This document shows, piece by piece, positions 8,371 to 31,015 of a stretch of 64,000 nt of DNA. A program made the translations under genes and the position numbers. The DNA is taken from the NCBI GenBank assembly GCA_963790475.1, contig CAWBOS010000011.1, positions 244,602-308,601 on the forward strand. The letters run 5' to 3'. The stretch is from an uncultured delta proteobacterium. Lineage in GTDB: Bacteria; Desulfobacterota; RBG-13-43-22. Under the pieces are notes generated by a model. That model was not told the DNA's origin. It was given only the letters and a program-made list of their open reading frames with translations, and made no database searches. The first letter of the stretch is position 1, and the number at the start of each line of letters is the position of its first letter.

Positions 8371-8378
8371 CGAGCGCC

Positions 8379-8725
8379 GACGACCGCCTGGCTGATGGCA
8401 TTATGCAGGTCCGCCGGGTCCTCGTCCAGGTCAGGCCCGGTTATGACGGGGTTTACGGGCAGGTAAAAATATTCAAAAATGATGTTCCCCCTCCCAAACC
8501 TTCCTGTTAACTAAATCTTTTTTAGCCGCATTACTTACCAGAGCCTTTCAAAATCCCTTCAATCCCCGGAGATCCTATCTTTCAATGGTCCTAGTTCCGC
8601 CCTCCCATGTTCTTTCCTGTGTAATAGTTTTCTCTTAACGATGAATGCTCAACGCCAAACCTTCTTCCTCTCTTTCCCCTCTTTTCTTTTTTAGTAAACT
8701 TTCTGGCCAACTGAAGGGTTTAGGT
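8379..8725 (+). repeat. Mosaic repeat copy: EndoQ-like C-terminal fragment (module B, 8379-8525) + non-coding module C
   Basis: DRLADGIMQVRR..VQVRPGYDGVYGQVKIF also at ~20601 and ~30660; module C also at ~22340, ~27662 and ~30810. Confidence 0.85.
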
Positions 8726-8859
8726 GAAAACTGAGCAGATATCCTTTTTTTGAATAAATAAGCATTCGGCCCTTTTAGCTGTTTTAACAAGTTTATTTTA
8801 TGCGTCAATTTGTAAGATCAAAATTCAAAAATAGACTTGAGCCTTTCACAGAAGTAAAA

Positions 8860-8945
8860 CCCAACCCCTTTATAGGAAACTTATCGCGCTTTTGTAAAAA
8901 GAAATACTCAATAAGAGAAAAGGGAGAGCCAATAAGAATAATTCA
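8860..8945 (+). promoter_or_regulatory. Conserved upstream block, candidate enhancer-binding-protein site
   Basis: cctttat(a/g)ggaaacttatcgcgctt..gt.aaaa.aaatac shared with 27851-27935; both lie ~165-175 bp upstream of a -24/-12 box. Confidence 0.6.
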
Positions 8946-9048
8946 AGGAGCAAAACCGGAAGGGAGATTGTCTAATCAACTACCTATCAGATGTATAACA
9001 TAATAAAATAATTGTATATATTTACAAATTATTTGGAAAACAACCGAA

Positions 9049-9064
9049 TGGCATAAAGATTGCT
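9049..9064 (+). promoter_or_regulatory. Sigma-54 -24/-12 promoter
   Basis: TGGCATA-AAGA-TTGCT matches TGGCAC-N5-TTGCW spacing; upstream of the RHS gene. Confidence 0.75.
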
Positions 9065-9375
9065 TTATCAACTAACTTGTTTGTTTGATATTTTTTAGGT
9101 CTTAAGCTTTCTTCCCTTTAAATACCCTTCACTCATATTTTGTGAAGTTAACATTTCTTTGCTTGTTGATATAGGTTTCCGGGCCTTATTGCCGATTGAA
9201 GTGATAGCTTAGCAAACATTTCTTTTTTTGAAAGAATAAGTATTAAATTTTTGTTGTTTTGATTAGTAAGTTTTCCCAGGGCTGGAGCAAAAGCAGGAAA
9301 ATTCTATTAATCCTGATGGACAGATTTTTCTTCAGTTCAAGCAATTTAAATTTATTTTTTTTAAAGCGAGGTCCT

Positions 9376-12300
9376 ATGAAACTGTCTCGAAAATTGCCCG
9401 TCCTAATATTCATTTCCTTATCTTTCCTTCTCATCCTCGGCTACGTATCTTCCACAGCGGAAGATACAGAAATTTCCATCGAGGGAGATCCACGCAGCCT
9501 GGCCATCAATCCTACCACGAATCAGGCCTTGGTAGGCAGCGTTAAGCCTAATGAGATTTCGCTGGTGGATCTGGACACGGAACAGGTCATTTCCACTATC
9601 GGGGTCGGGAAAAAACCTTTGGGAGTGGCCGTGGATTTAAGCAGAAACCTCGCCCTGGTCGTCCAAAAACCCAGCCATACCTTGTCGATTGTCAGCTTGG
9701 ACACCCACCAAGTCCTGGCCAATATATCCGTTGGGAAGTCTCCCTCCAGTGTGGCTGTTTATGAAAGGGATAGCGGCCCCCATCTGGGCCTTACCGCCAA
9801 TTATAAGGATAATACGGTTTCGGTGGTCGATTTAAAACAGTTTATTGTCCTCCAAACGATCCCGGTGGGCCAGGGACCAAGGGATTTGGCCGTCGATTCC
9901 AATCTCGGTCTGGCCCTGGTGGTCAATGAAAAAGATGATACGGTATCGGGTATAGACCTGGGAAGCTTTCAGGTTACCTGGATGATTCCGTTGGGAAACA
10001 AGCCCCGGGCAGTCAGCATCAATTCGGAGACCCATCTGGCCGCCACAGCCAATACCAAAGGGAACTCTATTTCCATCATCAACCTGACTCAGTGGCAGAC
10101 CCAGACGATCCCAGTGGATAAAAACCCAGTGGACCTGACCATGAATCCCTTAGACAATACGGTCCTGGTGGCTTGTGATAAAACCCAAAGCCTTCTTCGG
10201 ATAGATTTGAATACCAACACGGCCCTTCAGGAGTATCCCTTGAACAAGAGAACTCGGGGGTTGGCCGTCAATCCCTTTACCAATATAGCCGCTGTGGTGG
10301 ATGGTCAAACAGACAGCCTGACCCTGATTCAGCTTCCCAATCCTGTGCCGGTAATTGATGCAATCAATCCCACGACTGTTGCCAGAGGCAGTCTTGGGAC
10401 CACGCTGACGATTCAGGGTTCGGGTTTTCTTAAGACCTCGTCCGTATCTGTCCACCCTTCTCCGGATTTATTGCCGGTCACCTTTATCGACAATCATCAT
10501 CTGAGCATCACAATTCCCCAGGGATTCCTGGCCAAAGCCGGGACCTGGCAGGTTGTCGTTGCCAATCCTATCCCGGAAGGGGGTGTTTCCAATTCCGCAG
10601 TCCTTACCGTAATAAATCCGGTCCCGGCCATAACCACCATTGATCCTGCTTCCACTCCGGCGGGTGGCCAAGGATTGACCCTCACGGTTTACGGCACCGG
10701 CTTCTTTCCGGACACAAGTGTTTCGGTCAATGGGGCAATCAGACCCAGCACCTATATCAGCGGAACAGAGCTTCAGGTAACCCTTGCATCAACGGATATA
10801 GCCTCTGGTGGCATCCTTTCGATCGCCGCCTCAAACTTGGCACCGGGTGGAGGGATATCGAACCCCATGTCCTTAACGGTCATGAACCCTGTACCGATTC
10901 TTTCTTCAATAGATCCGAATTCCATCAAGGCCGGCAGCCCTGGTTTTACCTTGAACTTGGCTGGCAGTAACTTTGTCACCGGCTCATCCATCCTGTTCAA
11001 CAACACATCGGTAACGGTCACCTATGTGGACAGCGCTCACCTTACGGCCTTCGTCCCGGCAACAGCCGTTGCCGCAAAAGGAACTTATCCGGTGGTGGTC
11101 ACCAATCCTGGACCGGGAGGAGGGGCTTCCGGGTCCATCGATTTTACCGTAACCCCTTCTTCCAACGTCACCCCTTTGCCGGAAGGGGCCTATGGGAAGC
11201 AGTATGAAGACCTCTTCCCTTCTGATGCCACTATTCCCGGCTATGACCCCAAACGATTCTCCTTGATCACCGGGCTGGTCAATGATGCCACCGATAATCC
11301 ATTGTCCAATGTGGTAGTAGGCATCCACAGCCATCCGGAATATGGAACGGCCCAGACCGATCCTGCGGGTAGGTTTTCCATCCCCTTGGACGGAGGGGGA
11401 ACCGTCATAATGACCTATCAGAAAGCAGGATATCTTCCTGTCCACCGCCAGGTCAATATCGGCTGGAATACCATTGCCAATACCGAGACGATTATCATGA
11501 TCCCTGAGGATGCCGCATCAACGGCTATCAGCTTTGATGGTAATGCCTCAACCATTCTGACCCACCGAAGCACTCCGACCACCGATTCCTTCGGCACCCG
11601 GTCCCTGACCATGGTTTTCACCGGTGATAATCGGGCCTTGGTGAAAGATGACCAGGGCAATGAACAGCCCCTGACCAAAATCACCGTCCGGGCCACAGAA
11701 TATCCCACTCCGAAATCCATGCCGGCCAAGCTCCCGCCCACCTCGGCCTTTACCTACTGTGCTGAGCTGGCTGTAGATGGAGCCAAGAGCGTCAGGTTTG
11801 ATAAACCAGTAGTGGTTTATGTGGATAACTTTCTAGGCTTCAATGTTGGCGAAATCGTGCCTGTGGGTTACTATGATCGGAACCGGGCTGTCTGGGTGCC
11901 CCAGAATAACGGCAAGGTGGTCCGGCTTCTCGATACCAATGGAGATAGAGTAGTCGATGCTTATACGGATGGGATTAATCAATATCCTGCCCCGGGCCTG
12001 ACCGATCCGACTCAATACCCGCCCAATGCCACCTTTTGGCGGGTGGAACATACCCATTTTACCCCCTGGGATTATAACTGGCCATATGGTTTCCCATTAG
12101 ATGCCATTTCCCCGAATCCGGAATATCCCCCTATTACTGATGGTCAATGCGCAAACGATGATAATTCTTGTATCAGCTCCTATGTAGAGAACAGAAGTCG
12201 AATCTTCCATGAAGATATCCCGATACCCGGCACGAACATGACCCTCCATTATGCGAGCAATCGGACCAAAGGACATAAATCAGTTATTACAATTCCGGCG

Positions 12301-15300
12301 AGCGGTTCGAGTGTACCGGCGACCCTGTTACGGATCATAGTCCGTATGACGGTTGCCGGCCGGACCTTTGAGACCTCGCTTTCTCCACAGCCGAATCAGA
12401 GAGGGGAATTTATTTGGGATGGCTTCGATTATTTGAACAAACCGGTTTTTGGTTCGACCATTGCCAATATCAGTATCGGGTTTGTCTACCCGACAATATA
12501 TTATTCTTCCCCAAGCAGTTTTGAACAATCATTTGGTCAAGTAGGTACTTTCATAACCGGATTCCCTGTTGCCCGTCAGGAAATGACATCCTGGAAGCAG
12601 AGCGCGGTAATAATCTATCAGGGGAACACCGAAGAAATTGCAGAAGGCTGGACGCTCTCATCTCATCATTACTTTCAACCCGCTGATCCTTATACCCTGT
12701 ATAAAGGAGACGGGACAACTCTTAAAAATAATGCCAAGGTTATCACCACCATTGCCGGTAATGGTCAGGCGGGTTTTAGTGGAGACGGAGGCCCTGCTAT
12801 TCAGGCAAATCTTTACGCCCCGGGAGGGGTAGTATTGGATGGGGTGGGGAATATTTATATAGCAGATAGTTGGAATGACCGGATAAGAAAGGTGGATTAC
12901 AACGGAATTATTACTACCGTTGCCGGTAATGGTCAGCGGGGGTACAGTGGAGACGGAGGACCTGCTACTCAGGCAAGCCTTTTCGAGCCCAGTTATGTAA
13001 CAGTAGATAATGCTGGAAATCTCTATATCGCAGACTTAGCCAACCATCGTATAAGAAAGGTAGATACAAATGGGATTATTACCACCATCGCCGGGAATGG
13101 TCAGGGGGGTCAGTATGTGCAGTTTTCTGGAGATGGAGGTCCGGCGACCCAGACGCCTCTTGGCTATATAAATGGAATAGCAGTAGATAATGCCGGGAAT
13201 CTTTACATTGCAGATGGTTGGTATAACCGTATACGGAAGGTAGATGTAAATGGAATTGTCACCACTATTGTCGGCAATGGCCAGTATGGCTACAGCGGGG
13301 ACGGAGGTCCTGCCACGATGGCACAACTTGGTGGGCCTAATGGCGTAGCAGTAGATAATGAAGGAAATCTTTTTATAGTGGATGGATACAATACGAATCG
13401 GATAAGGAAGGTGGATGCAAGCGGAATTATTACTACTATTGCCGGGAATGGGCAGGCGGGTTACAGTGGAGATGGGGGACCCGCTATCCAGGCCAGTCTC
13501 AGTGGGGCAAGTGGTATAGCAGTGGACAATTCAAAGAACATTTATATAGGAGATAGTTGGGGCAACCGCATAAGAAAGATCGATACTAACGGGATTATTA
13601 CCACCTTTGCCGGCAATGGGCAGGCAGGCTTTAGTGGAGACGGAGGTCTGGCTATTCAGGCAAATCTTCTCGGGGCAAATTACATAGCAGTCGATAGTGC
13701 AGGTGCTGTATATATAGGAGATACTGGAAATCAACGGATACGAAAGGTTTCCTATCCGGAAGCATTCAGTTCCGTCGTCAATGCCGGCGACACCGCCTTC
13801 TCCGATGAAAATGGCCAAGGTTATATCATGTATAGCACTGGTCTCCATAAATCCACTATCGACCTGGAAACAGGAAAGACCCTGCTGACCTTCGGCTATG
13901 ACTCGGAAAACAGGCTTATTTCTATTACCGACCGATTCGGCAACCAGACCACGATTCAGAGGGATGGAAACGGGGTGCCCTTGTCGCTCGCTTCACCGGA
14001 TGGGATTATTACTCGTTTGACTGTTAACAGCAGCAACCATCTTACCGCCGTCACCTACCCGGATAATTCCGCCAATACCTTTACCTACACCTCAGACGGC
14101 CTCTTGACCGATAAATACGATCCCAAGGGAAACCATTTTGTCCATCAATTCGATACCAACGGGAGGATCTCCAACGTCTTCGATCCGGAAGGCGGATCCT
14201 GGAGTTTTTCAAGAAGTGTGGATAATTCCGCGACGGTCACAGCTACCACGCAGACCGCCGAAGGGAACACCACCACCTATCAGGACCGGACCGATTCTAC
14301 CGGGGCTTATACTTCGATCACCACCAGCCCCTTTGGTTCGGTGAGCACTTTTACCCGTTCCGCCGATGGTCTGACCGAAACCGAACAGCCGGCCTGTGGT
14401 CTAAACCAGACTATGAAATACGATCTCGATCCGGCCTTCAAATATAAATATCTCAAGGAATTCGCCCAGCGCTCACCCGCCGGGCTCACCCTGCTAACCG
14501 CCGACACCAGGAATTATCAAGACACCAATGCCGATAGTGTGCCTGATTTGATAACCAAAACCCTCGGTATAAACGGCAGGAACTGGACATTGATCAACAA
14601 CACCCATACCGGTATCCTGACCAGCACCTCGCCCTTGGGGAGGACCATAACCCGGAACTACAATCCTTTGAATCTGCTTACGCAGAACATGACAGTGACC
14701 GGTCTTCTCCCCTTAACTTTGGGATATGACACCAGAGGAAGGCTGACCACCACCACAACCGGAAGCAGGGCATCGACGATCACCTATGACAATCGGGGCA
14801 ATATCGAAAGCCTGGCCACCCCGGATGGGAAGACATTCCATTATACTTATGATTCAATGGGCAGATTGAAAAACCAGACCCTGCCTGACACTACGATGAT
14901 AAGTTATGATTACGACTCAAACGGCAACATGACCGTGCTGACCAATCCCCGAACCATCAGTCATGGCTTCGAATACACCGGCGTCAACCTGCGCAGGACC
15001 ATGACCACGCCCTTGTCCGGGAATTATCAGTACACCTATGACAAGGAACGAAATCTGAAGTCAATCCTCTTCCCTTCCGGTAGACAAATCAAAAATACTT
15101 ATCTGAATGGTCTTCTATCAGCAACGACCACCCCGGAAGGAGTGACCAGCTATACATATACCTGTGGCACAAACCTTCAGGATGCGACCAGAGACACAGA
15201 GAAGGTAGCCTATACCTATGATGGCTCTTTGTTGAAAACCGATACGCGGACAGGATTGCTTAATCAGATCATCGAATATGGTTATGACAACGATTTCCGT

Positions 15301-16665
15301 CTTATCTCTTTAAACTATGCCGGCGCATCTCAGATCTTAACTTATGATAATGATGGTCTGTTAATCGGAGCCGGGTCATTCACCATCACCCGCAACGCCC
15401 TGAATGGATTAGCAGGAACTGTATCTGGCGGTACCCTGACCAATACCCGGACCTTCAGTGGTTATGGAGAGCTGGATGGCTCTGTATACCTGGTAGGAGG
15501 GATGAGCAAGTACAGCTATTCTTTGACCCGCGACCTGGCCGGCAGGATTACACAAAAGATTGAGAACGTTGATGGGATAACCGATACCTACGATTATTCT
15601 TACGATACCAACGGCAGGCTGAACGAAGTCAAAAAGAATAACATGGTCGTGGAATCCTATACCTATGATCCCAATGGCAATCGCCTCACTGAAATAAACA
15701 CTCTCCGTGGTATTAACCGTCCCTATACTTTTTCGGATGAAGACCATATAATCAATGCAGGAGGTGAACCCTATCAGTTCGATGTTGATGGATTTATGAC
15801 CCAGAAGACGACCGCCGCCGGGAGCTTGGGAACTTCCTTTTCGTCAAGAGGCGAACTCCTCTCTGCTGCTTTACCTTCCGGTACCGTCATCACTTACGAC
15901 CACGACCCCATGGGCCGGAGAATAGCCAAAAGGGTGAACGGATCTATAATCGAGAAATATTTATGGAAAGACGCCATCACTTTATTGGCCGTCTATGATT
16001 CCTCCAACAGCCTGATAATACGTTTCAACTATGCCTATGGACGACTGCCGGTATCGATGACTTACAATGGCATCACCTATTACCTCGCCTATGACCAGAT
16101 CGGATCTCTTAAAGCGGCTATCGATACCTCAGGTAACGTCGTTAAAAAGATTGACTACGATTCCTTCGGCAGTATAATTTCAGACACGAATCCATCAATG
16201 AGCATTCCATTTGCATTCGCCGGAGGCCTTCATGACCGCGATACTAATCTCGTACGCTTCGGCGCCCGCGACTATGATCCTTCTATTGGCCGCTGGACCG
16301 CCAAAGACCCGATTGATTTTGGGGGAGGGGATACAAATCTGTATGGGTATGTGATGAATGATCCGGTGAATATGAATGACCCCTTTGGCTTATATTGTGG
16401 AAGCGGTATTTCTGAGTATTTTGTCCCAGATTCATGGTGGGGACAGTATAGTTTTAGTAATGCATGCAAAAAACATGATGATTGTTATGATACTTGTGGA
16501 AAAAAGAAACAAGAATGTGATAATAATTTTCTAAGAGACATGCGCCAAGAATGTTCTAAACTGGGAGGATACTGGCGGCAAGATTGCTCCGCTACATCAT
16601 ACATATACTATCAAGCAGTCGATAAGCTTGGTGGCCCAGCTTATAAATCTTCGCAAAACAAATAA
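9376..16665 (+). CDS. Secreted teneurin-like YD/RHS-repeat protein (YVTN propeller, 3x IPT/TIG, NHL propeller, YD shell, RHS core, PLA2-like C-terminal toxin)
   Basis: ATG at 9376 with GAGG RBS and signal peptide (the ORF track starts at 9259); NPVP..(S/T)I.P IPT repeats; ITTIAGNGQAGFSGDGGPA repeats; many YxYD repeats; core ARDYDPSIGRWTAKDPI...NDPVNMNDPFGL. Confidence 0.9.
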   Translation: MKLSRKLPVLIFISLSFLLILGYVSSTAEDTEISIEGDPRSLAINPTTNQALVGSVKPNEISLVDLDTEQVISTIGVGKKPLGVAVDLSRNLALVVQKPSHTLSIVSLDTHQVLANISVGKSPSSVAVYERDSGPHLGLTANYKDNTVSVVDLKQFIVLQTIPVGQGPRDLAVDSNLGLALVVNEKDDTVSGIDLGSFQVTWMIPLGNKPRAVSINSETHLAATANTKGNSISIINLTQWQTQTIPVDKNPVDLTMNPLDNTVLVACDKTQSLLRIDLNTNTALQEYPLNKRTRGLAVNPFTNIAAVVDGQTDSLTLIQLPNPVPVIDAINPTTVARGSLGTTLTIQGSGFLKTSSVSVHPSPDLLPVTFIDNHHLSITIPQGFLAKAGTWQVVVANPIPEGGVSNSAVLTVINPVPAITTIDPASTPAGGQGLTLTVYGTGFFPDTSVSVNGAIRPSTYISGTELQVTLASTDIASGGILSIAASNLAPGGGISNPMSLTVMNPVPILSSIDPNSIKAGSPGFTLNLAGSNFVTGSSILFNNTSVTVTYVDSAHLTAFVPATAVAAKGTYPVVVTNPGPGGGASGSIDFTVTPSSNVTPLPEGAYGKQYEDLFPSDATIPGYDPKRFSLITGLVNDATDNPLSNVVVGIHSHPEYGTAQTDPAGRFSIPLDGGGTVIMTYQKAGYLPVHRQVNIGWNTIANTETIIMIPEDAASTAISFDGNASTILTHRSTPTTDSFGTRSLTMVFTGDNRALVKDDQGNEQPLTKITVRATEYPTPKSMPAKLPPTSAFTYCAELAVDGAKSVRFDKPVVVYVDNFLGFNVGEIVPVGYYDRNRAVWVPQNNGKVVRLLDTNGDRVVDAYTDGINQYPAPGLTDPTQYPPNATFWRVEHTHFTPWDYNWPYGFPLDAISPNPEYPPITDGQCANDDNSCISSYVENRSRIFHEDIPIPGTNMTLHYASNRTKGHKSVITIPASGSSVPATLLRIIVRMTVAGRTFETSLSPQPNQRGEFIWDGFDYLNKPVFGSTIANISIGFVYPTIYYSSPSSFEQSFGQVGTFITGFPVARQEMTSWKQSAVIIYQGNTEEIAEGWTLSSHHYFQPADPYTLYKGDGTTLKNNAKVITTIAGNGQAGFSGDGGPAIQANLYAPGGVVLDGVGNIYIADSWNDRIRKVDYNGIITTVAGNGQRGYSGDGGPATQASLFEPSYVTVDNAGNLYIADLANHRIRKVDTNGIITTIAGNGQGGQYVQFSGDGGPATQTPLGYINGIAVDNAGNLYIADGWYNRIRKVDVNGIVTTIVGNGQYGYSGDGGPATMAQLGGPNGVAVDNEGNLFIVDGYNTNRIRKVDASGIITTIAGNGQAGYSGDGGPAIQASLSGASGIAVDNSKNIYIGDSWGNRIRKIDTNGIITTFAGNGQAGFSGDGGLAIQANLLGANYIAVDSAGAVYIGDTGNQRIRKVSYPEAFSSVVNAGDTAFSDENGQGYIMYSTGLHKSTIDLETGKTLLTFGYDSENRLISITDRFGNQTTIQRDGNGVPLSLASPDGIITRLTVNSSNHLTAVTYPDNSANTFTYTSDGLLTDKYDPKGNHFVHQFDTNGRISNVFDPEGGSWSFSRSVDNSATVTATTQTAEGNTTTYQDRTDSTGAYTSITTSPFGSVSTFTRSADGLTETEQPACGLNQTMKYDLDPAFKYKYLKEFAQRSPAGLTLLTADTRNYQDTNADSVPDLITKTLGINGRNWTLINNTHTGILTSTSPLGRTITRNYNPLNLLTQNMTVTGLLPLTLGYDTRGRLTTTTTGSRASTITYDNRGNIESLATPDGKTFHYTYDSMGRLKNQTLPDTTMISYDYDSNGNMTVLTNPRTISHGFEYTGVNLRRTMTTPLSGNYQYTYDKERNLKSILFPSGRQIKNTYLNGLLSATTTPEGVTSYTYTCGTNLQDATRDTEKVAYTYDGSLLKTDTRTGLLNQIIEYGYDNDFRLISLNYAGASQILTYDNDGLLIGAGSFTITRNALNGLAGTVSGGTLTNTRTFSGYGELDGSVYLVGGMSKYSYSLTRDLAGRITQKIENVDGITDTYDYSYDTNGRLNEVKKNNMVVESYTYDPNGNRLTEINTLRGINRPYTFSDEDHIINAGGEPYQFDVDGFMTQKTTAAGSLGTSFSSRGELLSAALPSGTVITYDHDPMGRRIAKRVNGSIIEKYLWKDAITLLAVYDSSNSLIIRFNYAYGRLPVSMTYNGITYYLAYDQIGSLKAAIDTSGNVVKKIDYDSFGSIISDTNPSMSIPFAFAGGLHDRDTNLVRFGARDYDPSIGRWTAKDPIDFGGGDTNLYGYVMNDPVNMNDPFGLYCGSGISEYFVPDSWWGQYSFSNACKKHDDCYDTCGKKKQECDNNFLRDMRQECSKLGGYWRQDCSATSYIYYQAVDKLGGPAYKSSQNK
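12740..13750 (+). repeat. Six ~170-bp intragenic NHL-type tandem repeats
   Basis: ITT(I/V/F)AGNGQ.G(F/Y)SGDGG.A.QA.L repeated six times in the RHS protein. Confidence 0.9.
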
Positions 16666-16774
16666 TCTAAAATGCGAAAAATTTCGCAAAATTTGAGTAT
16701 ATACAATAAAAAAACATTTTATTAAGTTATTGTTATTTAAAAAAATAAATATTGATTGTAAGTTTGAGGACAAT

Positions 16775-17056
16775 ATGAAAGGGTTTATTGGTTTTATAGT
16801 TTTTATTTTTTTAGATATTATTTTTTGTGTTGCTATTAGCATAAAAAGAAAGAAAATTTCACAAAAAATTGATTTTGTGGCCATTTTTTTATCGGCAATT
16901 GCAACTACTATTTTATTTCATATCATCGCTGTGATCGAAGATTTTAAGAGCAGCCAATGGGTTATGATTTCGATTCCAGTAGCTTTCATCTTTGGCTTAC
17001 TTATCTCAAGCTTAACATCTATTATCTATCAAGGCTTTTTGCAGAAAACAAAATAA
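16775..17056 (+). CDS. Small AT-rich membrane protein, candidate immunity protein
   Basis: GAGGA RBS + ATG at 16775; about three hydrophobic helices; follows the toxin tip and shares its low GC. Confidence 0.65.
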   Translation: MKGFIGFIVFIFLDIIFCVAISIKRKKISQKIDFVAIFLSAIATTILFHIIAVIEDFKSSQWVMISIPVAFIFGLLISSLTSIIYQGFLQKTK

Positions 17057-17390: not shown

Positions 17391-17466
17391 ATAATTCATA
17401 AGGGTTTTGTTTTCTTGGAGCAATAACCATGAAGGGTTAAAAAAAGTTGAAAGGCAGGGGCAGGAA

Positions 17467-20032: not shown

Positions 20033-20038
20033 TTTCTT

Positions 20039-22218: not shown

Positions 22219-22503
22219 AAAGGGGTCTCCGATTGACTTATTAAACCGATACAGGGACTAAAGGAACATGAGCAGGCCACTGTGGATAGAATATGAGGGA
22301 GCCCGATATCATGTGATGAACCAAGGGAAGGCGGTTGCATCCCCCGGAGATCCTTTCTTTCAATGGTCCCAGTTCCGCTCTCCCATCTTCCGTCCCTGTC
22401 TAATTTTTTTGCCACCGGACGATGAACGCTCAACACCGAACATCTTCTCCTTTTTTCCTTGCCCCTCTCCCCTCTTTTCTTTTTAGTAAACGTTCCTGTC
22501 AAA
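22219..22503 (+). repeat. Mosaic repeat copy: RAYT left end / 5' remnant fused to module C
   Basis: MSRPLWIEYEGARYHVMNQG, then from ~22340 cccggagatcct..ctttcaatggtcc.agttccgc...gatgaacgctcaac...ttttagtaaac. Confidence 0.8.
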
Positions 22504-22534
22504 CGGCGGACTTCAAAAAAAAATTTCTTAGGGC

Positions 22535-23401
22535 TCAATATTTCTTTTTAGCCTGTTCATTGAAAGGACCGTCACGAAATTCCAGCCAGCCCTTGAATCC
22601 CTTTTCCCGGGAGTGTTTGGATGCTTCGGCATTCCAGTCTGCGGACTCCTTGGTGGCATGGGTCATCTGGTGCCAGACATATTGATATTCAAAAGCCATG
22701 GCCATTCCCATAAAGTCCTGGGCCTTGTTCATGGCGCGTTTGGTCAGGGCCACGGAAACCGGGGGCATCAGGGCAATCCGCTCAGCCAGTTTCAGGGCCT
22801 CGGCATCCAACCGATCATTCGCCACGATCCGGTTAATCATGCCCAGGCGCTCTGCCTCTTCCAGAGGAATAATATCCCCGGTCCACAGGTATTCCTTGGT
22901 CTTCCGGAAGCCTATCTCAAAGGGAAGAACCATCACTTCCCCGCCGCTGCCGCAATGGCGGATCGAGGGATTCCATAGCCGGGTATCCTCGGCCGCAATA
23001 ATGATATCACACATACAGGCCAGCATGATTCCCCCCAGCACCACGTTGCCTTTGATAGCGGCGATGGTAGGTTTTTTCAGATTTCGGATGGCCAGGCATT
23101 TACTCAAATAATATTCATCCTCCAACTCCAGACGATCTTCAACACTTCTGCGGTGACGTTCCCGATAGTCCTGCTGGAGTTCATCACCGGGGATAGGACT
23201 CAAATCATGCCCGCTGGAAAAGGATTTTCCGGCCCCGCACAGGATAATCACCCGGATGTTCGGATCCCGATCCGCCTTTTGGGCCGCCTCATCGAGCTCC
23301 AGAATCAACCTGGCGTTCTGGGCATTGTGGGTCTCCGGCCGGTTGAGCGTAATCCGGACCACAGGACCTATTTCCTCATAAAGTATAGCCTGCCTTTCCA
23401 T
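22535..23401 (-). CDS. Enoyl-CoA hydratase/isomerase (crotonase) family protein
   Basis: ITLNRPETHNA, FSSGHDL, KPTIAAIKG...GG motifs; ATG at 23401 with AGGAGG RBS. Confidence 0.92.
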   Translation of the reverse strand: MERQAILYEEIGPVVRITLNRPETHNAQNARLILELDEAAQKADRDPNIRVIILCGAGKSFSSGHDLSPIPGDELQQDYRERHRRSVEDRLELEDEYYLSKCLAIRNLKKPTIAAIKGNVVLGGIMLACMCDIIIAAEDTRLWNPSIRHCGSGGEVMVLPFEIGFRKTKEYLWTGDIIPLEEAERLGMINRIVANDRLDAEALKLAERIALMPPVSVALTKRAMNKAQDFMGMAMAFEYQYVWHQMTHATKESADWNAEASKHSREKGFKGWLEFRDGPFNEQAKKKY

Positions 23402-23778
23402 CGTTTTCCTCCTTTGATTATTAGATTTACCCCCCCTGGAGTTGATCACCGAATCGACAGGCTCGGTTGTCTGTCCGTCCCGCGCCGCCGAAAACTCGCC
23501 GGTGCATCTTTTCTCCTACACATCAGCTATATACCTTTGCAAGGTCCTCTGTCACGACAATTTATAGAGGCCGCAAGGCATGGTGGCCTTCATAAAACCT
23601 CTCATAATAAAGCGGACCATTGCAGGCCATATTGCCGGTGGCTTCCAGACGCAATCTGCCGACGGGCCCGTCCTTATTCGCAAAACATTTCGGATTTATC
23701 ATCCTTCCAGATGCTATCAAAGGATTGTTTTGATGAGTGAAGGTGGTCCCCAACAATTGGTCAATGTTCACGTTTCCC

Positions 23779-24687
23779 CTATTTTATTTTCCAGTTTCGG
23801 TAGGCCCGGAGGGGCAGGATAAGACCAAAGAATGGAATCATATACATGGCGGCCACTGTGGGCTCCAGGGGTGTGAAGAATTGAGAGCTAAAAACGATTA
23901 CGAGCACATTGTTCATGATGCCAAGGCTAATGATTGCGGCCAATTGATCCTGCAATGGCCTCCCCCAAGCCAGAATAAGGCCTGATAATAGATAGAGGCC
24001 GCCGAGAATGATCGCCACCAGGATCGATACCGCGATTGTCCCAGGTCTTTGATAGAAAAAGTCAGAGTATTTGGAAAATATTCCCAAGTTGGTCAAAGCA
24101 AAAAGAACCAAAGCGATATAATACTGGTTCTTCATCAATGTCTGAGTAAGTCCCTCCGAAAACTTTCTAACCCCTTCAGCCAGTAAAATGGGAATGAAGA
24201 TGACCATAGACAAAAGCCTGATCATGCTTAATAGAGAAATATCCAGCGCCTTTCCGAAAAGAAAATCCACGAGCGCAGGGAGAGTGAAAGGAACCAGGAG
24301 CGACGATATGATGACCATGACGAGAACGACGGATGTGTTGGCTCCAAGAAGATTCGAGATGAAGGGCGCAACAACACCAGTGGATATCCCGCTCAAAAGC
24401 AAGGCAGACAAAGCATATTCGGGCCATATAATTTTGAATAGGATAGCGATCGTCAATGGCAGGAGGATCATTCGTATGACCAGAAAAAGCGAGATTTCCC
24501 CGAGAGATTCTGTCAGGGTCTTCTTAATGTCGGCAATGCGAAGAGGAAGAAAACTAAGAAATAGGAGGGTCATCATGGAATAAAAAGGGACGGGCTGAAA
24601 AATAGAGCTAAAACCAGGGGAAAAGATTCCTGTAAGAATGGATGAATAGATCACCACTAAGAGAATCGCATCTTTTGCACGAAACAT
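23779..24687 (-). CDS. Bile acid:sodium symporter (BASS)-like membrane transporter
   Basis: About 10 TM helices; STGVVAP...LGAN...SSLLVPFTLP pattern. Confidence 0.7.
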   Translation of the reverse strand: MFRAKDAILLVVIYSSILTGIFSPGFSSIFQPVPFYSMMTLLFLSFLPLRIADIKKTLTESLGEISLFLVIRMILLPLTIAILFKIIWPEYALSALLLSGISTGVVAPFISNLLGANTSVVLVMVIISSLLVPFTLPALVDFLFGKALDISLLSMIRLLSMVIFIPILLAEGVRKFSEGLTQTLMKNQYYIALVLFALTNLGIFSKYSDFFYQRPGTIAVSILVAIILGGLYLLSGLILAWGRPLQDQLAAIISLGIMNNVLVIVFSSQFFTPLEPTVAAMYMIPFFGLILPLRAYRNWKIK

Positions 24688-25426: not shown

Positions 25427-25766
25427 ATCGATTCACCTCCTTATTTAGTAAAATTTATCAGCAATTTTTTGATATTTTTTTGAATGCTTATATTTTATTA
25501 AGGCATAATTCATGCCAATATAATTAATAACGTTTTTACAATAAGTTGGATAAAATAGGGTTTTTTTGAAAGGGAAATATTGCAAATCTTGGGAAATATC
25601 TGGAAACTTATCTTAGAATTTATAATTTCTGGAAAGTAATTATTATAAGACCGCCCCGGGGATTGGAATATACGGCCGTGGTCATTCCCATTCTCATTCA
25701 GCACTATATCTCCTTTCAGAGAAACAGGACCTATACCGGGGCTACCAGGGGGAAAAAGTTGGTATT

Positions 25767-25873
25767 AAAAGGGTCAACTCTCCGGTTCCTGAAAAACAAG
25801 AGGTTAAAAAAGAGCTATGAGATTTTAAGGAAAGGTTTAATAATAGGTCAAATGGAGAACCTGACCCCTTTTT
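25767..25873. mobile_element. Mini RAYT-derived element with terminal inverted repeats
   Basis: Left aaaagggtcaactctccggtt; right aataggtcaaatggagaacctgacccctttt, an imperfect inverse of the motif preceding the RAYT remnants. Confidence 0.55.
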
Positions 25874-25912
25874 AACACCATAAATTCAAATGCTAAATAC
25901 AAGGAGGTAGAA

Positions 25913-26122
25913 ATGGGCAATCGTCTTAAGGATAAAATTGCCATCATAGAAAAGAAAACGATCAGAGAAATTCGGGATGGTCTTGTCCCATTGAAGGGCG
26001 GGCAGGGAACTGCCTGGGACACGGCCTATGCCGCTCTTTTCCTGGCATCCGATGAAGCAAAGTTTATTACTTCAATCTATCTGCCTGTCGACGGGGGACA
26101 ATGTGCGAAAATCGGGTCATGA
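25913..26122 (+). pseudogene. Internally deleted SDR oxidoreductase
   Basis: N-terminus [12 protein letters not shown] joined in frame to the C-terminus [25 protein letters not shown]...VDGG; Rossmann and catalytic core missing. Confidence 0.8.
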
Positions 26123-26247
26123 AACGGGTTGGGAGTTGATTGGAGATTAAGAATATTATAATGATGTGTTAAAATCAAAGACCTTGAAGGGGTTGGTCTC
26201 GTCCGCCCCCCCCCAGGATCCAAGACCCAAGAACATAAGGAGATAGG

Positions 26248-27291
26248 ATGGGCAAACAGCAGCAAATTACCGAACCATGTGAACTTCTCGACGAAAACGG
26301 GTTGTTGACAAAACCGGGGTATGCCACAAGGGCCTTCTGGCGCTATGACCGAAACAAAATCAAGGCTGGCTGGTATCGGATTAAGGAATGGGATTATTAT
26401 GCGGTCCTTTGCCAGGAAGAAGGATTCGGTATCAGCTTTGCCATGGCCGATCTGGGTTATATCGGGTCGGCCGGCGTCGGTTGGCTTGATTTTAAGGAAA
26501 AAAACTACAGGCATATCGGATCGACGTTGAATTTACCCAAAGGGAAAATGGGATTCCCTTCAACCCCGGATAAAGGAGAAGTGGCCTTCGCCGACAAAAA
26601 GATAAGGCTCAAGTATATCGTGTCCGGCCCCGAAAGGATTATTCAGGTTGAAGCGCCGGGGTTCATCGATAATAAAGGGCGAAAGGGTCTCAAAGGAGAG
26701 CTGAGATTATACCAAGACCCGGAAATGGACAGCATGGTCATCGCCACTTCCTGGGAGGAAAATCGAAAGGCTTTTTATTACAATCAAAAAACTAATTGTA
26801 TGCCGGCCAGGGGAACCATTACCATAGGCGACCGGCCGTACGAGTTCAATCCGCAATCCTGTTTCGGGGTACTGGACTGGGGGCGGGGGAACTGGACCTA
26901 TAAAAACAGGTGGTATTGGGGATCGGCCTCGGGTCTGCTCAATGGGCACCCCTTCGGCTGGAATATCGGCTATGGTTTCAGCGATCGTTCACCGGCCACG
27001 GAAAATATGCTGTTTTATGATAATAAGGCTCACAAACTGGAAGAGGTGGCTTTTCATATCAACACCGACGATTACCTGGCACCCTGGAAATTTGCCAGCA
27101 ACGACGGGCGGTTTGAGATGGACTTCACTCCTATTCTTGACCGGCATGCCGCTTCGGAAATTTTGTTTTTAAAGACCGTTCAACACCAAGTCTTCGGGAC
27201 CTTCGATGGTAAGGCGGTGCTTGACGACGGAACGGTACTTCAAGTCTCCAATTTCCTCGGGTTTGCCGAAGATGTATTGAACTGGTGGTGA
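26248..27291 (+). CDS. DUF2804-family protein
   Basis: RIKEWDYY, FYYNQK, LDWGRGNW...WYWGS and TVQHQVFG.F.G motifs. Confidence 0.85.
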   Translation: MGKQQQITEPCELLDENGLLTKPGYATRAFWRYDRNKIKAGWYRIKEWDYYAVLCQEEGFGISFAMADLGYIGSAGVGWLDFKEKNYRHIGSTLNLPKGKMGFPSTPDKGEVAFADKKIRLKYIVSGPERIIQVEAPGFIDNKGRKGLKGELRLYQDPEMDSMVIATSWEENRKAFYYNQKTNCMPARGTITIGDRPYEFNPQSCFGVLDWGRGNWTYKNRWYWGSASGLLNGHPFGWNIGYGFSDRSPATENMLFYDNKAHKLEEVAFHINTDDYLAPWKFASNDGRFEMDFTPILDRHAASEILFLKTVQHQVFGTFDGKAVLDDGTVLQVSNFLGFAEDVLNWW

Positions 27292-27310
27292 TTTTTTACA
27301 TAGTAATAAT

Positions 27311-27733
27311 TGGGTTAAGTCTCCGGTTGACTTATAAACCGATATGGATACCAAAGGAATATGAGGGAACCTGGTATCATGTGATGAACCAGGGGAGGAG
27401 ATCGGATCGGATTTTTAAAGACCGGAACGATTATCGGTTGTTGATTGACTTGATGGAGGATATAACCTGGGGTGCCCTGCTTTGACGAGATTGACGATTT
27501 AGCTGAGGGAGGGAAGACAAAAACAAAATGCAAAAAAATGGACCCCCGACTGTGAACTTCATTGAACGGCTGTCTCGGCCCCTGCCAGAAACCAAGACAA
27601 GGCCGTCTTCAAAGACCGCCAAGACTGTGAATTTTTTCTTGAGGTAAAAAGCTAAACATTATAGATCCGCCCTCCATGTTCTGTCCCGGTGTTAAGATTT
27701 TTTCTCCTGACGACGAACGATGAACGCGCAACG
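27311..27733 (+). repeat. Mosaic repeat copy: RAYT 5' remnant, a second RAYT-like scrap (27570-27645) and partial module C (27662-27733)
   Basis: EYEGTWYHVMNQGRRSDRIFKDRNDY; SRPL..NQDKAVFKDRQDCEFFLEV; tccgccctccatgttct...acgatgaacgc. Confidence 0.75.
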
Positions 27734-28029
27734 GTGAGCGTCTCAGATTTTCCTGGCTTTTCCGTTTCCTTTGTTGTTTAATAAGTTTGTTTTCTTGAAT
27801 ATAAAGAAAAAAATTACCCGGAGATTCTTCATCCTTTTTTGGAGGCAAATCCTAACCCTTTATGGGAAACTTATCGCGCTTATGTGAAAAAAAATACCCC
27901 AAAGAGAGAAAATGAGGAGACAAAAAAAGTAATTCAGGACCGAGACTTGAAAGGGGATGATTCATTTTATGAACCTATTTGATACGTAAGACTTTAAAAA
28001 AAGTTTAAGTTTTTTGAAACAGAGATAAA

Positions 28030-28045
28030 TGGCATAAAAACTGCT
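28030..28045 (+). promoter_or_regulatory. Sigma-54 -24/-12 promoter
   Basis: TGGCATA-AAAA-CTGCT, near-identical to 9049-9064 and with the same upstream block. Confidence 0.65.
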
Positions 28046-28238
28046 TTATTAATTAGTATCTATCTTCAGAGGTTTCCTTTCCGAATGAATAAGTATTCAG
28101 CCTTTTTAGCTGTTTTTAATCTGTTTTATTTTGGATTAGCAGTAGCAAGAGTCAAACGTAAGCTTAATCCCTTTATTGGCACATTAGGTCTCCCGCCTGT
28201 TATGAATAGACATAGTCGGGGGAGATTGTTCTGCCCAT

Positions 28239-30398
28239 TTGGAACCTATTAAATTATTAATGAATAAGCCAGGAATCAGACCAGGGATCGGTAAGATCAT
28301 TGAGGTCCGGAATTTATTGGAGGAAGAAGAAACCAAGGGCCGTGATCTGACCTATGGGAATTTATTTGAATTGGTCCGATTATTAACCGAAGGAGAACTG
28401 GAGAGAGGATTCAACAATGCCAAAAAGATCCCCCGCAAAAAACTGATCGACCTTCTCAATTATTTCAATTTCTCTGAGAGAGAATTTTTAGTTGTTTTCA
28501 GTCATCCCCAATACGATGAGATCGTAACCCGGGCCATCAAACCCCAGCCCTGTCAGGAAGGCACCATTTCCGGCCTATGGGCCCGCCCGGGGGACTATAG
28601 TGAATCTTTGAAAGATTTCGAAGTGCTTTGTTTTCTGATTGAAAACGAGAGAGAAATCCTTTTGGCCCAATCGCGGCGCGTCGAAATAGATGAGCAGGGG
28701 ATTGGGTTGACCTTGCCGGAATTCGGTTTTGAAATCATTATACGGAAAACCAATCGATACCCCTGCCATCAGGTTCAGGCGGAATTGATTCAAAACGGGA
28801 TTCTTTTCCCAGGGCGTCTGGATGTCTTCAGCGTCAACTCTTTTCGGGTGGAAGTCTTTTCCGAAGAAGGAAAATCTTTAAAATGGATTAATTCCGAATA
28901 TCCTGTCCAAATCATTCTAAAGGATCGAGAAGAAATTTTATATTCCCGGCAGTGTAAAATAGTCAAGCAGAGGGAAAATCTTAATACGAAAACTTTAGTA
29001 TTGGAACCCAACCATGAACCTATCCATAGATTCAAACGAAGAGAGTTTCGTGCCTCGAGAACAACCCTGCATCCGTCCCCCGGGGTTTATTGCCTTCACC
29101 CATTGATTAAGAGACTAATAAAATTTAATGTCTGCGATATATCGACTTCCGGTTTCTCCGTGGAAGAAGAAGGGGGATCCTCCACACTTCTGCCGGGAAT
29201 GATCATTCCCGACCTTCAAATCGAGCTGGCCAATACCGCCACCTTATCCTGCAAAGCCCAGGTCATTTATCAAAATAAAATGGAAGACACGGTTGTCAAA
29301 TCCGGCTTTACTATTTTAAATATGTCCAATGAAGACTATATTAAATTAACCAACCTGGTCAATAAATCCATGAATATTAATCTGGATATTTGCGGGACCA
29401 TTGAACAGGAATCTTTGTGGCAATTTTTCTTCCAGGCCGGATTTATCTATCCGCAAAAATATCATTATATCCAGCAAAATAAAGAAGATTTTAAAAACAT
29501 TTATAAAAAGATCTATCAAAGTCCGACGGAAATCGAGAGACATGTTACCTACCAGGAGAGGGGAAGCATACTGGGACATATCTCCATGCTCCATGTTTAC
29601 GGTGCCACCTGGATGCTTCACCACTTTGCAGCCACCCCCAGTTCCAGACACAAGAAAGTGGCCTTGACCCTGTTGCAGCAGATCGAACAGTATATCATCG
29701 ATTCCCATTATCTTGAATCTACCCGGATGGATAACATCATCTGTTATTTCCGGCCGGAAAACAAGTTCCCCAATCTGGTTTTCGGAGGAGCGGCCAGGGC
29801 GTTAAAAAACCCGAAGATCTGTTCGCTGGATCGTTTTGCCTATATCTCCTACCCCATGATCCTGAGCCCCCATCAAGGGGAACTTCCCGAACCCTGGACT
29901 ATGACCCCGACCGGGCCGAACGATTTGGACGAACTGGCCCATTTTTATAACCATACCTCCGGAGGGCAAATGATCCAAGCCCTTGATCTGTATCCGGATA
30001 CATTGAAAGACGATCGTTTAAACCAAACCTATCATCGCCTGGGTTTTAAACGGGAACGTCATCTTTTTTCGATCAAAAAGAAAGGCAAGGTCAAGGCTAT
30101 CATAAGCCTGATCAAAACCGATACCGGCTTGAATTTATCGGAATTGACCAATTGTGTAACGCTGTTTGTTTTGGAACCGGAAAGTTTTCCTTTTGAGGTG
30201 TTCTTAAAGACTTTTTCTCAGTTGGGGGTCCATGATGAACGTCAAACGATCCCTGTTTTAATTTATCCTGCCCAATATGCCGAACGTCATGCCATGGCCT
30301 GTGACCGTTTTTATGACCTCTGGGTTTTTGGGGTGGAAAACAGCGATCATTATTTCAATTACGTCAATAAGATCTTTTCGCGCCTTGTTTCTTTATAG
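28239..30398 (+). CDS. PilZ-domain protein with a C-terminal GNAT-like region
   Basis: RKTNR and RREFRASR (RxxxR) plus CDISTSGF (DxSxxG) motifs; C-terminal GHISML...WMLHHFAA...CYFRPENKFP; start may be the ATG at 28260. Confidence 0.75.
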   Translation: MEPIKLLMNKPGIRPGIGKIIEVRNLLEEEETKGRDLTYGNLFELVRLLTEGELERGFNNAKKIPRKKLIDLLNYFNFSEREFLVVFSHPQYDEIVTRAIKPQPCQEGTISGLWARPGDYSESLKDFEVLCFLIENEREILLAQSRRVEIDEQGIGLTLPEFGFEIIIRKTNRYPCHQVQAELIQNGILFPGRLDVFSVNSFRVEVFSEEGKSLKWINSEYPVQIILKDREEILYSRQCKIVKQRENLNTKTLVLEPNHEPIHRFKRREFRASRTTLHPSPGVYCLHPLIKRLIKFNVCDISTSGFSVEEEGGSSTLLPGMIIPDLQIELANTATLSCKAQVIYQNKMEDTVVKSGFTILNMSNEDYIKLTNLVNKSMNINLDICGTIEQESLWQFFFQAGFIYPQKYHYIQQNKEDFKNIYKKIYQSPTEIERHVTYQERGSILGHISMLHVYGATWMLHHFAATPSSRHKKVALTLLQQIEQYIIDSHYLESTRMDNIICYFRPENKFPNLVFGGAARALKNPKICSLDRFAYISYPMILSPHQGELPEPWTMTPTGPNDLDELAHFYNHTSGGQMIQALDLYPDTLKDDRLNQTYHRLGFKRERHLFSIKKKGKVKAIISLIKTDTGLNLSELTNCVTLFVLEPESFPFEVFLKTFSQLGVHDERQTIPVLIYPAQYAERHAMACDRFYDLWVFGVENSDHYFNYVNKIFSRLVSL

Positions 30399-30467
30399 CT
30401 TGGGGGTCCCCCTCCCCTTTCTCAAGACCTTTGAACAAAGTCCCCAGACCAGAAAATCTTTGGCCAT

Positions 30468-31015
30468 GGGGTCACCATTAAAAAGCCACCGTCTAGAGAA
30501 AAGGTTTTCCGTATACAAGAAGAAGCTTTTTTCTTGCAGTGCATAGGCATGATAGAACTGCCCAAGATTTCCAACGTCCTTACCTTTCGTCAGATAGAAC
30601 GAGGCCGGTCCGAGTTTTGGATTTTAATGGATCTTGAGGAAAAAGAAATGCGGTCTTTATGGACGGCCGCCTGGCCGATGGAATTATGCAGGTCCGCCGG
30701 GGCCTGGTCCAGTTCAAGCCCGGCTATGACGGGGTTTACGGGCAGACAAAAATTTCCCGAAATGATGTCCTCCTGCCAAAACCTTCCTCCCAACTCACAC
30801 TTTCTTACCGCCATATTTACCAGAGCCTTTCACAAGCCTGGCATTCCCCGGAGGTCCTTTTTTCATGTAACAAATCCCGACCTCCATGTTCTTTCCCTGT
30901 GTAATGGTTTTCTCTGAACGATGAACGCTCAACGCCGAATGTCTTTTCCTTCTCCCTTGCCCCCCTTCCCCTCTTTTTTTTTGGTAAACTTTCCGGCCAT
31001 GGCCCGGTTTAGGAT
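30468..31015 (+). repeat. Longest mosaic repeat copy: modules A + B + C
   Basis: Module A 30468-30588; EndoQ-like IERGRSEFWILMDLEEKE..GRLADGIMQVRRGLVQFKPGYDGVYG..KPSSQLTL; module C to ~31015. Confidence 0.85.

Follow-up and report, generated by a model that had tools for sequence, protein, structure and literature searches.

In the genome of an uncultured delta proteobacterium of the Thermodesulfobacteriota, the gene for Endonuclease Q (endoQ) stands ahead of a tract in which co-oriented pieces of the same few modules, here called A, B, C, D, E and Lead, punctuate a series of cargo genes. We analysed this tract (positions 8379–31015) in a window of 64 kb, that is, the whole stretch G000:C11:244602–308601, to which all coordinates without a contig name refer; the genome (G000) comprises 6.34 Mb, and its bin has an estimated contamination of 9.68%. 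Copy coordinates were fixed by iterative nhmmer models together with BLAST. We find that the modules are gene-end fragments and spacers with differing distributions, that the cargo varies among relatives and that synteny breaks at the endoQ stop codon. We infer, with a probability of roughly 0.55, that the region is a genus-specific accretion hotspot, in which additive recombination displaced old endoQ ends and deletions trimmed the resulting junctions.

Comparison of the window with itself (self-BLAST) returned 13 pairs of module copies inside the tract, all in direct (+/+) orientation, with 74.6–92.1% identity over 40–344 nt and E values from 1e-5 to 1e-74; an independent listing of repeats in the window recovered the same families (D4, D8–D12, D14 and D16–D19 of that listing). 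The copies are intergenic and lie between the cargo units named in an earlier note made from the sequence alone, which had described seven sites of shuffled, co-oriented modules composed of gene-end fragments and spacers at cassette boundaries; that description stands, its positions agreeing with self-BLAST and nhmmer within a few bases. The consistent local order that it proposed stands in part: every pair of neighbouring modules in the window agrees with A<D<B<C<E, but the tail piece of E precedes the sigma-54 region at site 1 and follows it at site 6, an exception to the conserved order. Beyond the window there is an eighth site, at −2199 to −1883 (C11:242402–242719), where the intact source gene carries copies B0 and C0.

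The modules have four separate origins and hence do not make up one mosaic element. B, the 5′ part of C and D are restricted to the endoQ locus, and A and Lead are dispersed families with distributions of their own. The single fragment-capturing element suggested by the earlier note is therefore not borne out. Outside the window, copies of A and Lead are convergent as well as tandem. No Rfam family reached its gathering score anywhere in the window; at a relaxed E value there were two chance-level matches in 8300–9300 and none in 19450–19960.

The endoQ gene and its displaced ends

The intact source gene that the earlier note had thought worth locating encodes an Endonuclease Q of 430 residues at C11:241326–242618, about 2 kb upstream of the window. 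The protein matches PfuEndoQ (5zb8_A) with E = 7.9e-53 over residues 16–413 (phmmer against PDB), and TIGR00375 with E = 9e-49 and 166.8 bits, under the equivalog cut-off of 326.6. Module B is the 3′ end of this gene: as the note had recognized from an EndoQ-like C terminus, B1–B3 align to its last 49–72 codons. Genome-wide BLAST of the 6.34 Mb found no B copies besides those at the endoQ locus, and a protein search found EndoQ in 24 of 31 genomes, with extra C-terminal fragments in G000 only. Module C is the spacer downstream of endoQ, the 3′ half of which represents a diverged Lead element.

Together, B1 and C1 are 79.8% identical over 252 nt to C11:242472–242717, and B3 and C4 are 82.4% identical over 319 nt to C11:242402–242719. 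B0–C0, B1–C1 and B3–C4 have one stop-codon-to-spacer junction in common, and the intact endoQ genes of six relatives diverge from it within about 15 nt past the stop codon. Hence the three B–C units derive from one junction. The 5′ limits of B are less regular, lying about 147, about 150–156 and 216 nt before the stop codon in G000 and about 75 nt before it in the related genome G008; the copies that keep the tail (all but B2) have the last 16 nt of endoQ and about 15–20 nt past the stop codon in common, and their 5′ limits range from 16 to 216 nt. At the left end of the array, a PLD/NucT-like gene fragment stops where B1 starts, an illegitimate junction; the segment 8300–8369 within it is 87% identical to C10:1568989–1569058 (BLAST). 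Ratios of non-synonymous to synonymous changes (pN/pS) were 0.39 for B1, 0.51 for B2 and 1.05 for B3, against 0.22–0.35 in six orthologue pairs (45–48 codons only).

The genes behind endoQ differ in all six relatives examined (6/6), and synteny with G000 ends there at the stop codon; on the upstream side, the three loci that reach as far as purD/E (G004, G008 and G011) have it conserved. Variation of the cargo among close relatives, which the earlier note had put forward as a check, is thus plain, and the synteny breaks coincide with modules. Behind endoQ, G004 carries a CopG antitoxin and fatty-acid genes; G010, a 992-residue protein without an assigned family; G005, an HTH/M78 pair, a PIN gene and BrnTA; G008, BamHI-like restriction–modification remnants, PIN and BrnTA; and G009, unrelated genes. 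The order in G011 is endoQ, HDOD, E, RHS, immunity gene, A and the right end of a TIRYT (RAYT-like HUH transposase) element, and that in G012 is an intact TIRYT gene, an HDOD-like open reading frame, a 16-nt B tail, C, E and RHS. Homologues in G000 of the relatives’ post-endoQ flanks are scattered over C11, C12, C13 and C15. G008 holds further endoQ-tail fragments, co-oriented in arrays, one on its contig C16 and two on C19, among PIN/RHH, GmrSD and BamHI-like remnants.

In sister genera (G014, G015, G017 and G018; loci L130–L133), a conserved, convergent NtrC-type sigma-54 activator of 457–462 residues lies behind endoQ, a position in which it occurs in none of the genus members examined. Sigma-54-type promoters, on the other hand, are found in the G000 array. 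A convincing duplicate was absent from all 51 more distant metagenomic endoQ loci that have 1.5 kb or more of downstream sequence, which gave only three matches of 18–28 nt, and a metagenome scan with EndoQ returned one close relative and no strain beyond G010, the rest being at most 79% identical. Between endoQ and HDOD in G011 (L018, about 1600–1645), a perfect palindrome, AAAGGGGTGACCCCTTT, follows the endoQ stop codon; it fits the motif GGGGWSAS and is terminator-like in appearance.

TIRYT ends, repeat A and the Lead family

Module D is the left end and N terminus of a TIRYT element, in keeping with the RAYT-type left end read by the earlier note. It matches intact TIRYT genes of 325–338 residues in G010 and G012, to which the window stubs are 81–89% identical in DNA; D1 is 84% identical to the intact G010 element, and D3 and D1 are 92% identical over 114 nt. 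The intact G012 gene (L022:1504–2484) matches PF01797 (Y1_Tnp, E = 2.1e-9) and PF08299 (Bac_DnaA_C, E = 2.3e-12), and the intact TIRYT scores 73.5 bits against NF047646 (REP-associated tyrosine transposase), for which the cut-off is 80. On either side of the G010 gene stands a 30-bp terminal inverted repeat that starts GGGGTCAA; the two ends both read AAAGGGGTCAAGTCTCCG.TTGAC, inverted and about 1040 bp apart, and fit seven of the eight positions of GGGGWSAS. The right end of the miniature relic in the window is 82% identical to that of the G010 element and 74% identical to that of the G012 element, and the terminal repeat is also carried there, at 25838–25871. With the nhmmer model, G000 contains only three D copies, all in one 10-kb stretch, and the intact RAYT source gene sought by the earlier note was not found in a search of this genome, where the best other match to TIRYT of the D type is 29.5% identical over 44 residues. 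A 25-nt end sequence has only nine matches in 6.34 Mb with up to five mismatches allowed. Nor are the junctions enriched in the terminal motif: GGGGWSAS occurs 18 times in 64 kb, compared with 12.6 ± 3.6 in shuffles, and four of the occurrences are in intergenic sites.

Repeat A is a low-copy repeat; G000 has 10 copies, often cut at position 50–60, and of 14 genus genomes 8 contain it. It lies just upstream of a TIRYT gene in G010, G001 and window site 2. In G000 and G011 it comes directly after RHS–immunity, and in G005 and G008 a piece consisting of its first 33 nt stands behind BrnTA. An inverted partial copy at C11:209277–209355 lies about 5 kb from the edge of a block that is inverted behind the endoQ of G004. 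A matches no Rfam family. A coding origin was considered and rejected, the minus-strand frames being interrupted and shifted between copies and the genome holding no longer source gene.

These data bear on the first of the earlier note's two proposals, in the form of a TIRYT-driven capture: D, and outside it A, would terminate non-autonomous elements that a TIRYT/RAYT-type HUH transposase mobilised in trans and that took up neighbouring gene fragments. D is a genuine TIRYT left end with intact Y1_Tnp and Bac_DnaA_C relatives, the start of A (GGGGTCAC) fits the GGGGWSAS motif given for TIRYTs in the available parts of two published accounts (PMC3733652, PMC6006769), A neighbours TIRYT genes in three places, the relic at 25762–25873 forms a left-end/right-end doublet, and C follows D at two sites and in G012. 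However, G000 has no intact gene of this type and only the three clustered D copies, the end sequence is of low copy number and its motif is not enriched, and the B fragments of G008 have neither A nor D beside them. Transposition by IS200/IS605-type HUH Y1 enzymes, moreover, is not known to duplicate 70–216 nt of a target gene. We consider such capture improbable.

Lead appears, from its sequence and placement, to be a dispersed promoter-leader family of which the 3′ half of C is a diverged member; the second copy in the window lies within C1, at 8681–8764. By nhmmer there are 18 copies in G000, and the family is present in 12 of 21 family genomes with at most 19 copies per genome; copies are often co-oriented, three or four within 2–5 kb. 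Each carries three direct TGAAGT repeats and a central CCGGCC/GGCCGG palindrome, and about half are preceded by TTGACT-N17-TATTTT, which is sigma-70-like, and by variable short tandem repeats. The genes behind Lead are mostly toxin–antitoxin pairs, DUF4143 ATPases, a Dam-type methylase with a HerA-like protein, and GmrSD; Lead-rich regions include C12:143000–160000 (L106) and C12:189000–204000 (L107) of G000, as well as L102–L105. In an alignment of 29 copies, Lead is better conserved than the surrounding DNA, with many columns at least 90% identical. It matches no Rfam family, and a structured RNA was rejected: a 12-copy fold of −10.6 kcal/mol was not upheld with 29 copies, whose consensus fold is weak (−2.3 kcal/mol, 1 of 13 pairs covarying), and covariation in the CCGGCC/GGCCGG hairpin does not exceed that of shuffles. 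The only transposase found beside Lead is one DDE gene, in G004. Two copies, C5:368–457 and C12:759491–759580, are identical over the approximately 420 nt extracted, so the small contig C5 may duplicate part of C12, which fits the contamination estimate. At C12:468062–469068, Lead and A copies bracket, by eye, stubs of a SIR2-like N terminus and an amidinotransferase-like C terminus; the window is therefore not alone in having fragment-rich junctions.

Module E seems, on the evidence of its sequence, to be a duplicated sigma-54-type promoter region. It has two main copies (8743–9100 and 27760–28062) and tail pieces (8747–8846 and 28078–28173); homologous regions occur upstream of RHS in G011 and G012, and in G012 also upstream of the orthologue of the 719-residue gene. 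The pattern TGGCAY-N5-YTGCW has exactly two matches in the 64 kb of the window, one at 9049 and one at 28030. Both are on the plus strand and fall inside E, against a chance expectation of 0.20; two matches were reached in 1 of 100 shuffles.

Recurrence of Lead and A suggests another account, corresponding to the second proposal of the earlier note: a working cassette system without an integrase, in which B–C, Lead and A would be maintained by selection as portable homology or regulatory sites, with RecA-type recombination at these sites excising, reinserting and shuffling toxin and defence cassettes. Both families recur at cassette boundaries across several arrays and species, with A behind RHS–immunity in two species and behind BrnTA in two others; synteny breakpoints coincide with the endoQ end, an inverted partial A lies near the edge of the inverted G004 block, and Lead is conserved above its surroundings. 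That conservation is explained equally well by a promoter or leader function, though, and the window copies have diverged to 67–92% identity, A and Lead are convergent as well as tandem outside the window, and the cargo lies on both strands. Read-level evidence comes from Logan contigs, the best run holding 37% of the sampled words and the aligned pieces being short and sparse; no excision or circle junction was seen among them, a set too thin to show absence. One contig of run X2 skips 22436–23483, with 21 other letters between, and two smaller skips span 44 and 282 nt; all skipping contigs come from runs at 90–95% likeness, which are probably relatives. We think such a system unlikely. A combined form, in which Lead, A and displaced endoQ ends would be portable recombination and expression sites that the TIRYT HUH enzyme or host recombination uses to stack toxin–antitoxin, defence and RHS cassettes co-directionally behind endoQ and a few other loci, also commands little credence from us.

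Origin of the array

In the accretion hotspot that we favour, growth would begin at the endoQ stop codon, with accessory cassettes (RHS toxin/immunity, toxin–antitoxin, restriction and other genes) repeatedly added behind endoQ. Some of the additions may have been single-crossover (Campbell-type) or unequal-crossover events, for which the 3′ end of endoQ and the promoter-leader spacer would have offered a region of homology or attachment, and each additive event would have left a displaced, co-oriented endoQ end (B, with or without C) deeper in the array. D and 25762–25873 are decayed TIRtron copies of separate origin. The A-D-B-C-E order would result from joining the right end of a unit (A, TIRYT) to the left end of its successor (endoQ end, spacer, promoter); subsequent deletions and illegitimate joins would then have cut this common junction down to the mosaics of the seven sites. 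The same cargo behind endoQ elsewhere, the synteny break at the stop codon and displaced ends in two species together fit serial additive insertion or unequal crossing-over. The order of the modules, the increase of decay in B away from the gene and the likeness to published tRNA-seeded islands also speak for this reading. The additive mechanism, the order of events and the view of the array as a fossil rather than an active system are the inferred parts of this reading.

Several findings weigh against accretion. The nearest PF00589 match, one of 19 in G000, is at C11:98359–98871, about 143 kb from endoQ; a serine recombinase (PF00239) has no match in the genome, and none was seen by Pfam in the post-endoQ arrays of G005, G008 and G011, where no other recombinase was seen either. 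D and B nowhere adjoin directly (D|B), so that under the common-junction model each site would call for a further deletion. Repeats of 67–92% identity and at most 344 nt make a poor RecA substrate today. G004, the closest relative (94% EndoQ identity), has no C behind endoQ, and the 10.5-kb segment between B0 and B1 (ECF sigma factor, transporter, thiolase, TetR and a binding protein) is unlike a mobile element. The three fragments of G008 have about 50 nt upstream of the B boundary in common and are therefore copies of one junction, not three insertions; B1 and B2 may likewise be copies of one junction, their 5′ limits being no more than about 10 nt apart. Finally, the rise of B decay with distance from endoQ, as expressed in the pN/pS values, is drawn from three fragments of fewer than 50 codons each.

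Another account has the scars stem from classical integrative islands. Phages e14 and 21 at icd and tycheposons at tRNA genes are likened cases, and here a tyrosine integrase would have used an attP containing the endoQ 3′ end, its genes having since been deleted. Co-oriented partial 3′ ends of the target gene do lie inside the island in two species, with endoQ itself intact (besides B1–B3 in G000 and the G008 fragments), and in every relative the variable sequence starts no further than about 15 nt from the stop codon. But neither an integrase nor a fragment of one was found in the arrays examined or beside the attachment site, the 5′ limits of B are not uniform, the repeated unit runs about 200–300 nt past the gene into C, and the 51 distant loci hold no convincing duplicate. 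This origin is, in our judgement, distinctly unlikely.

The published Prochlorococcus tycheposon islands (bioRxiv 10.1101/2020.12.28.424599), as far as the available part of that work describes them, leave the same footprint, successive integrations pushing older elements inward and leaving partial tRNAs and fragmented integrases. The likeness extends to one full-length target gene at the island edge with co-oriented partial 3′ ends inward of it, to fragmented recombinase genes and to cargo that varies between relatives. The present locus differs from those islands in that the target is a protein gene rather than a tRNA, no tyrosine integrase is present and the only recombinase relics are of the HUH-type TIRYT, the repeated unit includes a promoter-leader spacer, and the fragment limits are not uniform.

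An assembly artefact, in which the contig would string together different strain versions of the post-endoQ region, is suggested by the contamination estimate and by the alternative contigs that G008 has for the same region (C16, C19 and C20). Repeats of at most 344 nt and 92% identity are, however, too short and too unlike one another for contigs to be mis-joined at them; C11 has a length of 308 kb and unique flanks; and contigs of run X1, which may be the source sample and hence not independent, match several pieces with zero or one mismatch, including 27013–27481 across the DUF2804/D3 junction. We attach very little weight to an artefact.

Taken as a hotspot, the locus belongs to a known kind, the accessory-gene hotspot, with displaced target-gene ends as its variant feature. 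It resembles the defence and accessory hotspots of Escherichia coli (PMC10121019) and Pseudomonas aeruginosa (PMC10250203), in the portions of those studies available to us, in having a fixed position beside a conserved gene, toxin–antitoxin, restriction and toxin cargo that changes from relative to relative and often no recognizable mobile element, and differs in that the flanking gene end and its spacer are repeated inside the island and a promoter-leader family is shared between cassettes. D and 25785–25873 correspond to the two ends of a TIRtron (Di Nocera et al. 2013, PMC3733652; subclass 2.1, Quentin et al. 2018, PMC6006769, both in part), whose intact relatives here have Y1_Tnp, Bac_DnaA_C, 30-bp terminal inverted repeats and a GGGGTCA start, at moderate-to-low copy number; the window copies are N-terminal stubs of 21–60 codons, fused to other modules within 10 kb. 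The available parts of these two papers describe no mobility or capture function for TIRYTs. The abundant genome-wide REP population of REPtron or REPIN–RAYT systems is not seen here, with nine end matches, three D copies and 30-bp terminal inverted flanks, and no IS91/ISCR-type Y2 HUH gene appeared among the Pfam-scanned open reading frames of the window, a scan not aimed at such genes. Lead and the 3′ half of C are like the putative mobile promoters of PMC3575422 (as given in the part available) in being a near-identical region upstream of unrelated genes within and between genomes, and differ in being clustered in arrays before toxin–antitoxin and defence genes and in extending about 105 nt past the putative promoter.

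The earlier note had also entertained shuffling in an integron-like way, and this is not supported. Chromosomal integron arrays and clusters of attC sites lacking integron integrases (CALINs) likewise consist of co-oriented repeats between small, toxin–antitoxin-rich cassettes. Here, however, no IntI lies beside the array, given the distance to the nearest PF00589 match, and no serine recombinase is present; no palindromic attC-like site was seen, A and Lead lacking, by eye, RYYYAAC/GTTRRRY arms and the imperfect palindrome form. The cargo also lies on both strands with promoters of its own: the minus strand holds the TIGR04255 operon, the enoyl-CoA hydratase and the SBF gene, cargo genes have sigma-54-type and sigma-70-like promoters ahead of them, and some units reach 7 kb.

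If the accretion reading is true, the locus records the gain of accessory genes at a fixed point, with no recognizable integrase, in an uncultured Thermodesulfobacteriota lineage, and displaced gene ends mark successive events there as partial tRNAs do in better-known islands. It would then be worth asking whether TIRYT contributed to island growth and what Lead does upstream of toxin–antitoxin and defence genes. If the repeats are only scars, this is an ordinary, though unusually legible, hotspot.

Cargo and neighbouring repeats

Table 1. Modules, gene fragments and cargo units of the tract, in window order (hmm, model positions)
Feature	Position	Strand	Basis
PLD/NucT-like nuclease, N-terminal fragment	8119–8378	+	NucT E = 4.5e-4, PLDc_2 E = 0.016, both far under cut-off
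B1, displaced EndoQ 3′ end, last ~49 codons, premature stop	8379–8527	+	BLAST
C1, spacer after endoQ stop, Lead-type 3′ half 8681–8764	8490–8795	+	nhmmer, C E = 6.8e-81, Lead E = 2.1e-11
E1, sigma-54-type promoter region (predicted), TGGCAT-N5-TTGCT at 9049–9064, upstream of RHS	8743–9100	+	nhmmer, pattern search
Lead, ~105 nt, directly upstream of RHS gene	9136–9242	+	nhmmer, alignment
Cargo 1, RHS/YD teneurin-like protein, 2468 residues, and 108-residue putative immunity protein	9259–17056	+	Pfam
A1, repeat A reduced to its first 59 nt, with the start GGGGTCAC	17131–17188	+	nhmmer
D1, TIRYT left terminal repeat and ~60 N-terminal codons, in-frame stop	17198–17391	+	nhmmer
Cargo 2, three-gene operon headed by TIGR04255-family protein	17467–19451	−	NCBIfam TIGR04255 E = 3.8e-25
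A2, full-length repeat A, 158 nt	19630–19785	+	nhmmer
Cargo 3, BrnT/BrnA toxin–antitoxin pair	19955–20543	+	Pfam
B2, displaced EndoQ 3′ fragment, ~45 codons, without tail, stop and C	20601–20736	+	BLAST
Cargo 4, SDH-type Clp-fold serine protease	21178–22119	+	PF01972 E = 4e-22; NF047768 87 bits, cut-off 250
D2, TIRYT left end and ~21 codons, fused to C2	22225–22341	+	nhmmer
C2, without first 67 model positions	22334–22521	+	nhmmer, hmm 68–240, E = 1.2e-33
Cargo 5, enoyl-CoA hydratase and SBF-family transporter	22535–24687	−	Pfam
Miniature TIRYT relic: left-end-like repeat 25762–25790, then right terminal repeat and gene end 25785–25873	25762–25873	+	
Cargo 6, C-terminal SDR gene fragment and DUF2804 gene	25913–27291	+	Pfam
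D3, TIRYT left end and ~45 codons, first 6 codons deleted	27316–27478	+	nhmmer
C3, partial copy	27661–27787	+	nhmmer, hmm 103–211, E = 4.4e-19
E2, sigma-54-type promoter region (predicted), TGGCAT-N5-CTGCT at 28030–28045, and Lead-tail piece	27760–28173	+	nhmmer, pattern search
Cargo 7, 719-residue protein, weak GNAT match	28239–30398	+	Pfam
A3, ends at model position 131, joined directly to B3	30467–30595	+	nhmmer
B3, longest displaced EndoQ 3′ fragment, ~72 codons, frameshift, stop lost	30593–~30810	+	BLAST
C4, upstream of response-regulator gene	30773–31039	+	nhmmer, E = 3.5e-56
Cargo 8, stand-alone response regulator, multi-copy paralogue family	31256–31858	+	Pfam

The cargo units (Table 1) include two with counterparts behind endoQ elsewhere. 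The tip of the RHS protein of cargo 1 has a sub-threshold PLA2-like match, and an orthologous RHS–immunity pair lies directly behind endoQ in G011; copies of the BrnTA pair, 91–93% identical, lie 2–5 kb behind endoQ in G008 and G005. The other two open reading frames of cargo 2 match no family in Pfam, NCBIfam or PADLOC. Two labels of the earlier note need correction: its Clp protease pair is one Clp-fold SDH protease gene, and its PilZ gene is the 719-residue gene of cargo 7, for which Pfam gives only the weak GNAT match. That protein has RxxxR and DxSxxG motifs by eye and no match in NCBIfam or PADLOC, and PADLOC assigned none of the cargo to a defence system, apart from generic receiver-domain matches of the response regulator.

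Within the RHS gene, six tandem units of about 168 nt (12712–13748) encode NHL/teneurin-type repeats. The response regulator has at least seven further copies in G000 at 73–81% DNA identity and many in every genus genome, and in G013 it does not have the radical-SAM gene (here at 32293) as its neighbour. Three kilobases to the right of the last repeat site, two tandem DDE transposase genes (DUF772 and DDE_Tnp_1; 34152–35534 and 35661–37022) are about 85% identical over 1.4 kb, and the C terminus of the first departs from that of the second, suggesting a frameshift. Further along, a coding region has internal repeats at 60057–60480, with a unit of about 93 nt (D13 and D15 in the repeat listing).

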